Positions 22,750 through 25,700 of a stretch of 64,000 nt of DNA are shown one piece after another. Position 1 is the stretch's first letter; every line of letters starts with the position of its first letter. The stretch lies in NCBI RefSeq assembly GCF_045037415.1, contig NZ_CP173438.1. One strand, 5' to 3'. Origin of the DNA: Escherichia coli (lineage in GTDB: Bacteria; Pseudomonadota; Gammaproteobacteria; Enterobacterales; Enterobacteriaceae). Made by a program: the position numbers.

Positions 22750-25700
22750 TAATTACACGTTAATTAGTTTTGAATTGAAAAGGGCGCTTCGGCGCCCTTT
22801 TTGCATTTGTTGACTGCATATCTTATTCGTACTGTCAGAACGAATAACTTATTCATATTTAAAATATCAATTCAATTTAATATTTTAAATATGAATGTTT
22901 CTGTTTTAAAAATGCTTCATTTGTCAGGCTTTTTTCTTATTTTTAATGCCGCACTTTAATTCATATTGAAGGGTTCTCGTAAAACGTAAATAATTCCTGC
23001 GTAGGACTTTTGTTTTGCAGTTTTTACGTTACAAGGGATTATAATGAAATTAAATATATTTACTAAATCTATGATTGGTATGGGGCTGGTGTGTTCCTCT
23101 CTGCCAGCATTGGCAATGGAAGCATGGAATAATCAACAAGGTGGTAATAAATATCAGGTTATTTTCGATGGCAAAATTTATGAAAATGCCTGGTGGGTTT
23201 CTTCTACAAATTGCCCGGGAAAAGCGAAAGCAAATGATGCAACTAACCCGTGGCGTTTAAAGCGTACCGCAACAGCTGCTGAAATTAGTCAGTTTGGCAA
23301 TACACTTTCCTGCGAAAAGAGCGGAAGCTCATCTTCTTCAACTTCAAATACGCCAGCATCTAATACGCCCGCTAATGGCGGTTCGGCTACACCAGCACAG
23401 GGCACTGTTCCGTCTAATTCTTCTGTAGTTGCCTGGAATAAACAGCAGGGCGGTCAAACCTGGTATGTCGTCTTTAATGGTGCGGTATATAAAAATGCCT
23501 GGTGGGTAGCCTCTTCTAACTGCCCGGGTGATGCGAAAGGCAATGATGCCAGCAACCCATGGCGTTATGTTCGTGCCGCTACGGCAACGGAAATCTCAGA
23601 AACCAGTAATCCACAGTCTTGTACTTCAGCACCACAGCCTGCACCGGATGTGAAACCGGCACCGGACGTTAAACCGGCCCCTGATGTTCAGCCAGCCCCA
23701 GCTGATAAGTCAAACGACAACTATGCTGTTGTAGCCTGGAAAGGTCAGGAAGGTTCTTCTACATGGTACGTTATCTACAACGGCAGCATTTATAAGAACG
23801 CCTGGTGGGTAGGCGCGGCAAATTGCCCAGGCGATGCGAAAGAAAACGATGCCAGCAACCCATGGCGTTATGTTCGCGCGGCAACGGCAACAGAAATCAC
23901 TCAGTATGGTAACCCAGGCTCCTGTTCCGTTAAGCCGGATAATAATGGCGGTGCTGTGACTCCGGTTGATCCAACTCCGGAAACACCGGAAACTCCAGTT
24001 ACTCCAACTCCGGATAACAACGAGCCATCAACACCAGCGGATAGCAGTAACGATTACTCACTGCAGGCGTGGAGTGGCCAGGAAGGCAGCGAAATTTACC
24101 ATGTTATCTTCAATGGTAATGTTTATCAGAATGCCTGGTGGGTTGGTTCTGAAGATTGCCCGCGTGGCACCAGTGTAGAAAACTCCAATAACCCATGGCG
24201 TCTCGTGCGTACAGCTACCGCTGCGGAAATGAGTCAGTACGGTAACCCGACTACCTGTGAAATTGATAATGGCGGCGTCATTATTGTGGATGGTTTCCAG
24301 GCCAGCAAAGCGTATAGCGCGAACAGCATCGTAGATTATAACGATGCACATTATAAAACCTCTGTCGATCAAGACGCATGGGGCTTTGTCCCCGGCGGCG
24401 ATAACCCGTGGAAGAAATACGAACCGGCGAAAGCATGGTCCGCTTCCACCGTGTACGTGAAAGGTGATCGCGTTGTTGTTGATGGGCAGGCTTATGAAGC
24501 GCTGTTCTGGACGCAAAGTGACAACCCTGCTCTGGTTGCGAACCAAAACGCCACCGGTAGCAATAGTCGCCCGTGGAAGCCGTTAGGTAAGACTCAGAGC
24601 TATAGCAACGAAGAGCTGAATAATGCGCCGCAGTTTAATCCAGAAACGCTTTATGCCAGTGATACGCTGATTCGCTTTAACGGTGAGAACTACATTTCTC
24701 AGAGTAAAGTGCAGAAAGTTTCTCCTTCTGACAGCAACCCGTGGCGTGTCTTTGTTGACTGGACCGGAACCAAAGAGCGCGTAGGTACGCCGAAGAAAGC
24801 GTGGCCGAAACACGTTTATGCACCGTATGTCGACTTTACGCTGAATACGATCCCGGATCTGGCTGCGCTGGCTAAGAATCATAACGTCAACCACTTCACG
24901 CTGGCGTTTGTGGTGAGTAAAGATGCGAACACCTGTCTGCCGACATGGGGGACCGCTTACGGTATGCAGAATTACGCTCAGTACAGCAAAATCAAAGCGC
25001 TGCGTGAGGCTGGCGGTGATGTGATGCTGTCTATCGGTGGTGCTAATAATGCCCCGCTGGCAGCTTCCTGTAAGAACGTTGACGATCTAATGCAGCATTA
25101 TTATGACATCGTTGATAACCTGAACCTCAGAGTCCTGGACTTCGATATCGAAGGCACCTGGGTTGCGGATCAGGCATCTATTGAACGTCGTAACCTTGCT
25201 GTGAAGAAAGTGCAGGATAAATGGAAGTCAGAAGGCAAAGATATTGCTATCTGGTATACCTTGCCAATTCTGCCGACAGGCCTGACGCCGGAAGGGATGA
25301 ATGTCCTGAGCGATGCCAAAGCGAAAGGTGTTGAGCTGGCGGGTGTGAACGTGATGACAATGGACTACGGTAACGCTATTTGTCAGTCTGCAAACACCGA
25401 AGGCCAAAACATCCACGGTAAGTGTGCAACGTCTGCGATTGCCAACCTGCATGCGCAGCTGAAAGGCCTCTATGGCAATAAGAGTGATGCAGAAATTGAC
25501 GCCATGATGGGTACCACGCCGATGGTTGGCGTGAACGACGTTCAGGGTGAGGTGTTCTATCTCTCTGATGCTCGTCTGGTCATGCAGGATGCGCAGAAGC
25601 GTAATCTCGGTATGGTTGGTATCTGGTCAATCGCGCGCGACCTGCCGGGCGGCACTAACCTGTCTCCGGAATTCCACGGTCTGACTAAAGAACAGGCTCC

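Follow-up and report, generated by a model that had tools for sequence, protein, structure and literature searches.

The chiA gene of Escherichia coli encodes a protein whose N-terminal part consists of repeated modules joined by partly repetitive linkers, which raises the question of whether these direct repeats alter module and linker copy number among strains and, if they do, what such changes represent. The reading favored here, with a probability of roughly 0.85, is that the locus is the known E. coli chiA gene, encoding a secreted GH18 chitinase/lysozyme, and that its repeats give rise to rare variants by misalignment.

The chiA locus and its product

The window is the whole 64,000-nucleotide stretch of E. 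coli contig NZ_CP173438.1 (assembly GCF_045037415.1) that was analyzed. An ORF at 23044-25746 (plus strand, as for all chiA features below) encodes a 900-aa protein corresponding to chiA (yheB), for which RefSeq gives the product name "bifunctional chitinase/lysozyme". The gene is preceded by tufA (21523-22752) and followed by bfr (26181-26657); the order tufA-chiA-bfd-bfr is conserved, with gspO beyond bfr in the locus order. Both identity and position relative to tufA and bfd/bfr/gsp mark the ORF as the ortholog of E. coli chiA/yheB. The sequence is 100% identical to that of ST131 genomes (a B2/ST131-type allele) and, along the full length of the gene, shares 96.5% DNA identity with K-12-type records annotated as chiA. 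Across the species, chiA is absent from 42% of complete genomes.

K-12 ChiA (YheB, 897 aa), a Gsp-secreted endochitinase/lysozyme, is the same gene at the same locus with the same domain order, and export of ChiA has been attributed in the literature to the adjacent Gsp type II secretion system. Following the published nomenclature of LF82-type polymorphisms (PMC11486038, PMC6393329), the window allele has the LF82-type residues Q, E, V and V within module 4, plus an LF82-type E in the final CBM-like domain, so that the five LF82-type residues of the "pathogenic" allele of adherent-invasive E. coli (AIEC) are also found here (PMC6393329). Module 4 corresponds to "chitin-binding domain 4" of the AIEC literature and harbors four of the five LF82/K-12 substitutions (PMC11486038).

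Downstream of the N-terminal modules, three shorter CBM5/12-type domains (24292-24768; aa ~417-575), known in the literature as "chitin-binding domains 5-7", were delineated by Pfam, PDB matches and alignment. Pfam CBM_5_12 (PF02839) matched two stretches with an E-value of 2.5e-13 and 50.2 bits, above the gathering cut-off of 26.2 (best stretch, aa 464-497), which establishes their membership in CBM5/12; the third domain (aa ~531-575) is recognizable by alignment only. Sequence matches of these domains in the PDB include 2d49_A and 6z40_A. The C-terminal catalytic domain (24802-25737; aa ~587-898) is assigned to GH18 by Pfam Glyco_hydro_18 (PF00704; 40.8 bits against a cut-off of 29.6) and by PDB matches to 9buf_A (1e-47) and 2dsk_A (2e-37), and its DFDIE motif lies within LDFDIEG, a DxDxE motif that is invariant in the chiA alignment. 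The gene and its domains are already known, and chiA is an ordinary gene.

Four N-terminal modules and their identical DNA stretches

A repeat search of the window DNA returned one repeat family with four 207-nt copies, starting at 23107, 23416, 23719 and 24052, spaced 309, 303 and 333 nt apart and sharing 60-71% DNA identity, and a module HMM matched four full 69-aa copies at the same places. Module 1 (23107-23313; aa 22-90) adjoins the predicted signal peptide and is followed by module 2 (23416-23622; aa 125-193), module 3 (23719-23925; aa 226-294) and module 4 (24052-24258; aa 337-405). A preliminary description of this DNA had proposed four tandem modules of ~60 aa within the N-terminal 400 aa; the copy number is borne out by both searches, and each copy measures 69 aa.

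Identity between modules at third codon positions is only 0.36-0.49, and the modules of other four-module species find their best match in the E. coli module of the same position. Given this low third-position identity and the positional orthology, the modules are old, positionally conserved duplicates that have been kept alike by protein-level constraint rather than homogenized. Concerted evolution or gene conversion, considered as a source of their overall similarity, was rejected because third positions are near saturation and positional orthology holds. A local gene-conversion patch is possible at one site, the 29-mer GATGCCAGCAACCCATGGCGTTATGTTCG, which encodes NDASNPWRYVR in module 2 (23545-23573) and recurs without a mismatch in module 3 (23848-23876). 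A run of at least 29 bp of identity is unusual for these two modules, being reached in 0.24% of codon-column shuffles (P 0.0024). The near-identical module DNA previously noticed at about 23547 and 23849 is exact over 29 bp, and its two copies form the left and right crossover sites of a 303-bp module-fusing deletion. Shorter identities fall in the NAWWV motif: the 16-bp AAAATGCCTGGTGGGT of module 1 (23183-23198) is repeated in module 2 (23492-23507) and serves as the crossover site of M1/M2 fusions, and GCCTGGTGGGT of module 3 (23800-23810) is repeated in module 4 (24133-24143) at the site of M3/M4 fusion, where the identity extends over 11 bp in the window compared with 17 bp in K-12-type alleles.

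The modules are separated by Ser/Pro/Thr-rich linkers, coded in part by tandem units of 9, 15 and 18 bp. Linker 1 (23347-23376) is seen from the sequence to contain the 15-bp units AATACGCCAGCATCT / AATACGCCCGCTAAT (NTPAS-NTPAN). In linker 2 (23641-23694), Tandem Repeats Finder reported an 18-bp unit in 2.6 copies at 23641-23687; the three units suggested previously are present in the protein (APDVKP, APDVKP, APDVQP), but in the DNA the third (23677-23694; PDVQPA) is degenerate. The preliminary description did not include the 9-bp units of linker 3 (23974-24009), namely ACTCCGGAA, ACACCGGAA, ACTCCAGTT and ACTCCAACT (TPE TPE TPV TPT), which were recognized from alignments and from a Tandem Repeats Finder match of 2.3 copies at 23973-23993.

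Fold and family of the modules

Domain searches had been expected to reveal four repeated carbohydrate-binding modules. With Pfam, no CBM matched the four modules at E ≤ 10, and only the downstream CBM_5_12 (two stretches) and GH18 were found in the protein; Pfam and NCBIfam, applied to the protein and to single modules, provided no family name for them. Profile-profile comparison with ChiA's own CBM5/12 domains (hhalign) gave probabilities of 2-22%, too weak for sequence homology. The expectation holds at the level of the fold: in a Foldseek search with an AlphaFold2 model of module 4 (pLDDT 94), the top match was the N-terminal domain of Chi2 (TM 0.81, E 1.7e-5, 43% identity) and all further neighbors were chitin-binding CBM5/12/73 domains, so that the predicted model places the modules in the CBM5/12/73 fold superfamily by 3D similarity.

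The similarity to Chi2 extends to sequence (phmmer against 6ogd_C, E 4.5e-13), and both sequence and structure support membership with the Chi2 N-terminal domain, which spans residues ~24-97 and likewise lies N-terminally in a GH18 enzyme. A module profile search (1.84 billion searched) identified 49 representative clusters at E ≤ 0.001, 35 of them at E ≤ 1e-10, and the members checked with Pfam were GH18 enzymes; matches in the weak tail with many short stretches, which might have passed for CBM repeat proteins, were rejected as WD40/fn3 false positives by Pfam. The modules form a small family, located N-terminally in GH18 enzymes, with a CBM5/12-like fold in the predicted model and homology to the Chi2 N-terminal domain. 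In each module, a beta core of CBM5/12 type (AW...Y.V.F.G..Y.NAWWV...NPWR.V) precedes a short helix, which would be held by a predicted disulfide between the two conserved cysteines, cysteine-36 and cysteine-69. The extra C-terminal helix and the cysteine pair distinguish the modules from CBM5/12 domains such as Streptomyces griseus ChiC (2d49) and the C-terminal domain of Serratia ChiB; modules 1-4 also receive no Pfam CBM_5_12 score and a low profile-profile probability.

In the literature the modules have been termed chitin-binding domains, with substitutions in module 4 tied to CHI3L1 and mucin binding (PMC11486038). In Yersinia entomophaga, the homologous 70-aa domain of Chi2 (6ogd/9c4k chain C), present in a single copy with neither cysteine as opposed to the four copies with a cysteine pair in ChiA, docks the enzyme onto the TcA toxin subunit, YenA1, via a beta-strand (PMC12705794). 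Since this domain is the best match in sequence and structure and the only solved homolog, and since Pfam CBM models miss the modules, they could serve in protein docking, tethering ChiA to the cell surface or to a protein partner, instead of binding carbohydrate. We consider this unlikely, given that every fold neighbor after Chi2 is a chitin-binding CBM5/12/73 domain and that Chi2-type members have neither the two cysteines nor the second W, a pattern suggesting a derived, co-opted status for Chi2; ChiA-type members keep the cysteine pair. The modules also conserve an aromatic NAWW motif, which is typical of CBM5/12-type chitin-binding modules, and we know of no Tc toxin partner for ChiA.

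Length variation and its interpretation

Both linkers and modules vary in copy number. Among 3,121 chiA-positive complete genomes, the 18-bp unit of linker 2 occurs in two copies in 29 genomes (e.g., allele P0001), in three copies in about 3,074 and in four copies in 17 (e.g., ETEC1747), so that 98.5% share one copy number and 1.5% are variant, in agreement with the earlier proposal that linker units are gained and lost. In linker 1, variation at the indel level affects 26 of 3,105 complete genomes, and allele P0022 has one extra 15-bp PASNA unit there. Linker 3 exists as two common length alleles, one 9-bp unit apart, carried by 1,163 and 1,958 complete genomes (37:63). According to the alignments, it is this linker that separates the window ChiA from K-12-type alleles, which are 3 aa shorter (897 compared with 900 aa) by a single TPE unit; the preliminary description had suggested that the difference could reflect repeat number, and it does, but the unit concerned is the 9-bp TPE repeat of linker 3 and not the 18-bp repeat.

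Three-module alleles were found in 7 of about 3,120 complete genomes (~0.2%), the remaining ~99.8% having four modules. Coverage of a chimeric-junction query is not discriminating, as megablast alignments run on into the 71%-identical partner module or are put together from two pieces, and these counts were therefore based on identity bands, the number of match pieces and single-piece full-length matches. The 799-aa alleles equal the window protein minus exactly 101 aa, with the crossover inside the 29-bp identity of modules 2 and 3. For this in-register M2/M3 fusion, breakpoints were mapped in L005, L013, ETEC1746 and a Shigella genome: in L005 and L013 the crossover interval is bounded exactly by the 29-bp identity, and in ETEC1746 it falls within its last 20 bp. 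Sources of the fusion include the complete genome ETEC1746, the 5.0-Mb contig L013 and a complete genome recorded as Shigella dysenteriae (CP027027; the label is that of the record in the protein collection). The ~3,120 complete chiA-positive genomes yielded a single in-register M2/M3 fusion allele; in the protein collection, many of the in-register 799-aa alleles derive from drafts assembled from short reads, in which an assembler may have skipped the loop at the 29-bp repeat. Other fusions use other sites. An out-of-register breakpoint at a 9-bp microhomology leaves 6 extra bp in L008, the 16-bp identity underlies an M1/M2 fusion in the 794-aa EC0430-type allele of five complete genomes (EC0430 and four others), and the 17-bp identity an M3/M4 fusion in the 789-aa allele of one complete genome (B771). 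Three-module alleles yield an intact chimeric module, and every length change is a multiple of 3 bp and so preserves the reading frame. In the protein collection, six or more haplotype backgrounds carry the in-register M2/M3 fusion; the occurrence of three-module alleles on several backgrounds implies that deletions recur. Direct repeats had been predicted to promote both loss and gain of modules, but only losses, by M1/M2, M2/M3 and M3/M4 fusion, were observed: a synthetic M3-left/M2-right junction query detected no five-module allele in 3,122 genomes, and none was found in the protein search.

Three single-contig variants (P0065, P0079 and P0080) with larger or out-of-register deletions, including one two-module form, were also seen and are not relied on. 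An inverted match in strain MB53 was rejected as a repeat event and attributed to an IS-mediated rearrangement.

These endpoints suggest a mechanism. Protein-level constraint leaves a few motif-coding stretches identical in DNA (29, 16-17 and 11 bp), in direct orientation and ~300 bp apart; misalignment between two such stretches would occasionally delete one repeat period in frame, turning two modules into one chimera and four modules into three, and linker units would be gained or lost singly by a similar misalignment. The route is presumably replication slippage or template switching, or short-homology recombination, and for identities of 9-29 bp at this distance, slippage is no less likely than RecA-dependent exchange. 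Because no module gain was found, simple reciprocal unequal crossover is unsupported, and deletion-biased slippage fits better. The chiA endpoints resemble deletions between short direct repeats formed by RecA-independent misalignment in bacterial genes, and its linker units, which change singly and in frame, resemble tandem-repeat slippage of the kind that gives in-frame repeat variation in surface proteins.

Two further explanations of the variants were weighed. If they were assembly or sequencing artefacts, produced where de Bruijn assemblers collapse the loop at short repeats, there would be no real length variation. In keeping with this, most 799-aa alleles lie on draft contigs of at most ~41 kb, the commonest deletion coincides exactly with the longest perfect repeat, the place at which an assembler using a small k would skip sequence, and complete genomes contain far fewer such alleles. 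Nevertheless, three-module alleles are present in finished chromosomes (ETEC1746, EC0430 and four others, B771 and CP027027), with breakpoints at a 9-bp out-of-register microhomology or at 16-17 bp, below usual assembly k-mers; a 701-aa Shigella-type allele has entries in 150 collection blocks, and the linker-3 alleles divide the species in the proportions given above. An artefactual origin is accordingly very improbable.

It is about as improbable that the repeats form a selected "contingency" system comparable to repeat-variable adhesins, in which module number or linker length tunes ChiA-mediated adhesion to glycoproteins of the host (CHI3L1, mucin), with lineages selecting particular variants. 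ChiA does promote adhesion, and module 4 substitutions alter binding (PMC11486038, PMC11390585); the deletions have arisen repeatedly and on many backgrounds, the variants are all in frame with the chimeric module intact, and the two-copy and four-copy linker-2 alleles are each common to a group of genomes (29 and 17). Against this, nearly all chiA-positive genomes have one and the same number of 18-bp units and four modules, and the gene itself is missing from 42% of complete genomes. Each tract holds at most three imperfect units, all multiples of 3 bp, and the repeats are short and imperfect, unlike those of true contingency loci, whose long and nearly perfect tracts often change copy number between close relatives and as a rule switch expression; chiA differs from the classical type in its low variant frequency, its few imperfect repeats and the lack of on/off switching. 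Shigella, the sole lineage with a common three-module allele, also carries a frameshift, which suggests decay. A broader proposal would combine adaptive tuning with docking: the modules would constitute an uncurated Chi2-like family (~40 sequence clusters, not in Pfam) serving docking or adhesion rather than plain chitin binding, recurrent in-frame module fusions and linker changes would be selected as a means of tuning how ChiA attaches to host glycoproteins in certain lineages of E. coli and Shigella, and the YenTc chitinase would have been recruited by co-opting the same module. This proposal is quite unlikely. Under the favored reading of rare misalignment products, the repeat variants, recurrent but rare, look like ordinary mutational by-products and not like a programmed switch, and they are probably neutral in function; chiA is a locus of low-level repeat polymorphism, not a hypervariable one.

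The length alleles have practical consequences, although the locus remains an ordinary one. ChiA is under study for its part in adhesion and mucus degradation by Crohn's-associated and mastitis E. coli, and the chiA literature searched treats amino acid substitutions and not module or linker copy number. Typing schemes number amino acid positions on the 897-aa K-12 protein, and this numbering is shifted by alleles of 894, 897, 900 and 903 aa and by the three-module forms of ~789-804 aa. Length alleles also alter PCR amplicon sizes, and gene-presence or allele callers can mislabel them; for the short forms, the RefSeq name is "carbohydrate-binding protein". The homology of the modules to the YenTc Chi2 anchor domain offers a small but useful annotation pointer for a domain that Pfam does not recognize, and the allele series provides natural constructs for the effects of module number and linker length on binding.

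Identity and repeat architecture of chiA

The open reading frame at 23044-25746 (+ strand; 2,703 bp, 900 aa), which carries its repeats in the 5′ third, is the known gene chiA/yheB, since sequence identity, synteny, domain content and matches to solved GH18 enzymes all point to it. Its sequence matches chiA of ST131 and further B2 E. coli at 100% identity and the K-12-type gene, annotated as 'bifunctional chitinase/lysozyme', at 96.5%. It is flanked by tufA (21523-22752) and by bfd/bfr (bfr, 26181-26657), beyond which a gspO-like prepilin peptidase gene follows on the opposite strand. 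Its product contains, according to Pfam, one GH18 catalytic domain and two CBM_5_12 stretches, and solved GH18 enzymes match aa 587-898 (E 1e-47). Previous studies have described secretion of ChiA via Gsp, silencing of the gene by H-NS, and a contribution to the adhesion of adherent-invasive (AIEC) and mastitis E. coli (PMC11486038, PMC11390585, PMC6393329). Megablast matches to any part of chiA were obtained in 3,162 of 5,426 complete E. coli genomes (58%), and a published survey detected ChiA in 74% of RefSeq E. coli proteomes (PMC11486038).

Several side observations concern the locus. Judged by position, the upstream 704-aa ORF is probably fusA, and the long antisense ORFs opposite it (528 aa; 19347-20933, -), opposite tufA (412 aa; 21424-22662, -) and inside chiA (162 and 103 aa) appear to be shadow ORFs and not genes. 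In some strains chiA is disrupted by insertion sequences. An IS1 lies within an otherwise 100%-identical chiA in genome H1 (NZ_OZ040994.1). In strain 3PT an IS1 sits 61 bp into the gene, with a deletion onward to gspE that includes bfd, bfr and gspO-F, and in MB53 (locus L018; NZ_CP073939.1, 421500-430500) an inverted chiA segment between two ISVsa5 copies is annotated as a partial 'lysozyme'.

The four tandem modules proposed in the preliminary description for the N-terminal part of ChiA were recovered by both a repeat search, which returned a single family of four 207-nt copies (at 23107, 23416, 23719 and 24052; spacings 309, 303 and 333 nt; DNA identity 60-71%), and a module-built HMM, which found exactly four full copies (M1-M4; aa 22-90, 125-193, 226-294 and 337-405). 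The near-identical DNA described between copies is likewise present as an exact 29-bp repeat (23545-23573 in M2, 23848-23876 in M3) encoding NDASNPWRYVR, and a run as long occurred in only 0.24% of codon-column shuffles of this pair. Tandem Repeats Finder detected the reported 18-bp unit in linker 2, but at 2.6 copies (23641-23687) with a degenerate third unit, so that three full copies had been overstated; it also detected a 9-bp unit (2.3 copies, 23973-23993) in linker 3. In linker 1 there are two 15-bp units (23347-23376). A fifth AACCC(A/G)TGGCGT (NPWR) motif occurs at 24729-24747, in the last CBM5/12-type domain (SDSNPWRVF), and is a weak sequence trace linking the four modules to the canonical downstream CBM5/12 domains.

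Length alleles of linkers and modules

Protein alignment of the window allele with K-12-type (897 aa), ETEC1747 (903 aa) and EC31 (900 aa) alleles showed that the difference between 900 and 897 aa is one repeat unit, as had been suggested, but a 9-bp TPE unit of linker 3 rather than the 18-bp repeat. Two common length alleles of linker 3 exist, the window-length form in 1,163 complete genomes and the shorter form in 1,958. The LF82 'pathogenic' polymorphism comprises Q, E, V, V and E at K-12 positions 362, 370, 378, 388 and 548 (PMC6393329); because of the extra TPE unit, this published numbering is off by three in B2-type alleles, and the window protein carries all five LF82-type residues at positions 365, 373, 381, 391 (24061-24258, in M4) and 551 (~24694). 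In the AIEC literature, the four modules are chitin-binding domains 1-4 of seven, and four of the five LF82/K-12 substitutions fall in domain 4 (PMC11486038). The 18-bp unit is present four times in ETEC1747 and twice in P0001 (a cluster representative of 894 aa). Of the 3,121 complete E. coli genomes holding linker 2, all but 46 have three units, the exceptions being 29 genomes with two and 17 with four; the linker 2 search likewise placed 46 records at 80-90% identity. Linker 1 exhibits indel-level divergence in 26 of 3,105 genomes, and allele P0022 has one additional PASNA unit.

Whole modules are also lost. A protein search retrieved dozens of 799-aa ChiA sequences from E. coli, and on alignment these equal the window protein less exactly 101 aa, with ...CPGDAKG joined to NDASNPWRYVRAATATEIT... 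At locus L005, the fused module is identical to M2 up to the 29-bp repeat and to M3 immediately past it, and the crossover therefore lies inside this identity. The same in-register M2/M3 fusion was found on further backgrounds, in L013 (a 5.0-Mb contig), in ETEC1746 (a complete genome; 796 aa on a K-12-like background) and in a complete genome assigned to Shigella dysenteriae by the protein collection, in which a frameshift also truncates the protein. Two more junction types were drawn from complete genomes annotated 'carbohydrate-binding protein': M1/M2 fused at a 16-bp identity AAAATGCCTGGTGGGT in EC0430 and four others (794 aa), and M3/M4 fused at AAGAACGCCTGGTGGGT in B771 (789 aa). Complete genomes with module loss comprised one M2/M3, five M1/M2 and one M3/M4 case, such alleles amounting to ~0.2% of ~3,120 chiA-positive complete genomes. 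At least six marker haplotypes in the protein collection carry the in-register M2/M3 fusion, and fusions at NAWWV and VVAW were found as well. RefSeq labels three-module alleles, along with some linker variants, 'carbohydrate-binding protein' rather than chiA (records L010, L016, L017, H299, H316 and H319), and gene-presence surveys based on product names would miss them.

Many 799-aa alleles derive from short-read drafts, and a loop-skipping assembler would delete exactly at the longest internal repeat. For this reason, the claim of module loss is based on finished chromosomes, contigs >4 Mb and breakpoints with 9-17 bp of identity, with draft-derived diversity taken as supporting evidence only. 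The deletion at locus L008, 6 bp out of register at a 9-bp microhomology CGGCAACGG (798 aa, extra Ala-Thr), is an independent event outside what usual assembly k-mers could create. The repeats had been proposed as a substrate for both gain and loss; module loss and linker-unit variation were found, but module gain was not. Searching complete genomes with a synthetic version of the reciprocal duplication junction retrieved no five-module allele, and no E. coli ChiA exceeded 903 aa in the protein search or genome records examined.

Family, age and fold of the module

Domain searches, expected to reveal repeated carbohydrate-binding modules, detected the GH18 and CBM_5_12 regions but left the modules unrecognised by both Pfam and NCBIfam. 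A module profile searched against 1.84 billion representative proteins yielded 49 clusters at E<=0.001, the weakest of which were rejected as WD40/fn3 false positives by Pfam. In true members the module immediately follows the signal peptide, and those on which Pfam was run proved to be GH18 enzymes. Escherichia-like sequences have four copies, Superficieibacter and a relative have three, and Citrobacter, Enterobacter and others have a single copy. In other four-module proteins each module is closest to its positional counterpart in E. coli, and third-codon identity among the E. coli modules is only 0.36-0.49, both of which argue that the copies are old and have not been homogenised. The middle module is M3-like in one three-module relative and M2-like in the other, suggesting independent losses there too.

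A confident AlphaFold2 model of M4 (56-sequence alignment, pLDDT 94) had as its best structural match the N-terminal domain of Chi2, the Yersinia entomophaga GH18 enzyme, in the YenTc holotoxin (TM 0.81, 43% identity), and the modules also match this domain in sequence (E 4.5e-13). This anchor domain (PDB 6ogd/9c4k chain C, residues 24-97) is a clear homologue of the ChiA modules. Chi2-type sequences lack both conserved cysteines that the modules keep and have TYWVERW in place of AWWV. In YenTc, it docks Chi2 onto the toxin shell (PMC12705794), and the cysteine loss is consistent with a use that is derived and co-opted. Neither ChiA nor a CBM relationship of the Chi2 domain comes up in the main text of the 2025 paper on the YenTc structure. 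Profile-profile comparison with the downstream CBM5/12 domains of ChiA gave a weak match in the right register; in our reading, the module is a divergent CBM5/12-like core plus a C-terminal helix, held by a putative disulfide between cysteines at module positions 36 and 69.

Probable mechanism and significance

Protein-level constraint probably keeps the stretches encoding NAWWV and NDASNPWRYVR identical in neighbouring modules, providing identities of 11-29 bp, ~300 bp apart and in direct orientation. Misalignment between them would drop one period and leave an intact chimeric module, and the 9-, 15- and 18-bp linker units would be altered through the same process. Judging from short-repeat deletion in E. 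coli generally, identities of this length do not exceed the minimum at which RecA-dependent exchange becomes efficient; they are characteristic of replication slippage, with which the absent reciprocal duplication agrees. Length variation, predicted as recombinational, is real, but recombination is not necessarily its mechanism. All observed length changes keep the frame, and the only lineage with a common short allele also has a frameshift; together with the rarity of the alleles, sporadic, roughly neutral mutation therefore fits better than a programmed or selected switch. Both chiA and the arrangement of its domains had been described before, and in-frame length polymorphism mediated by repeats is familiar. 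The allele series and the connection with the Chi2 anchor domain add useful annotation and are not discoveries.
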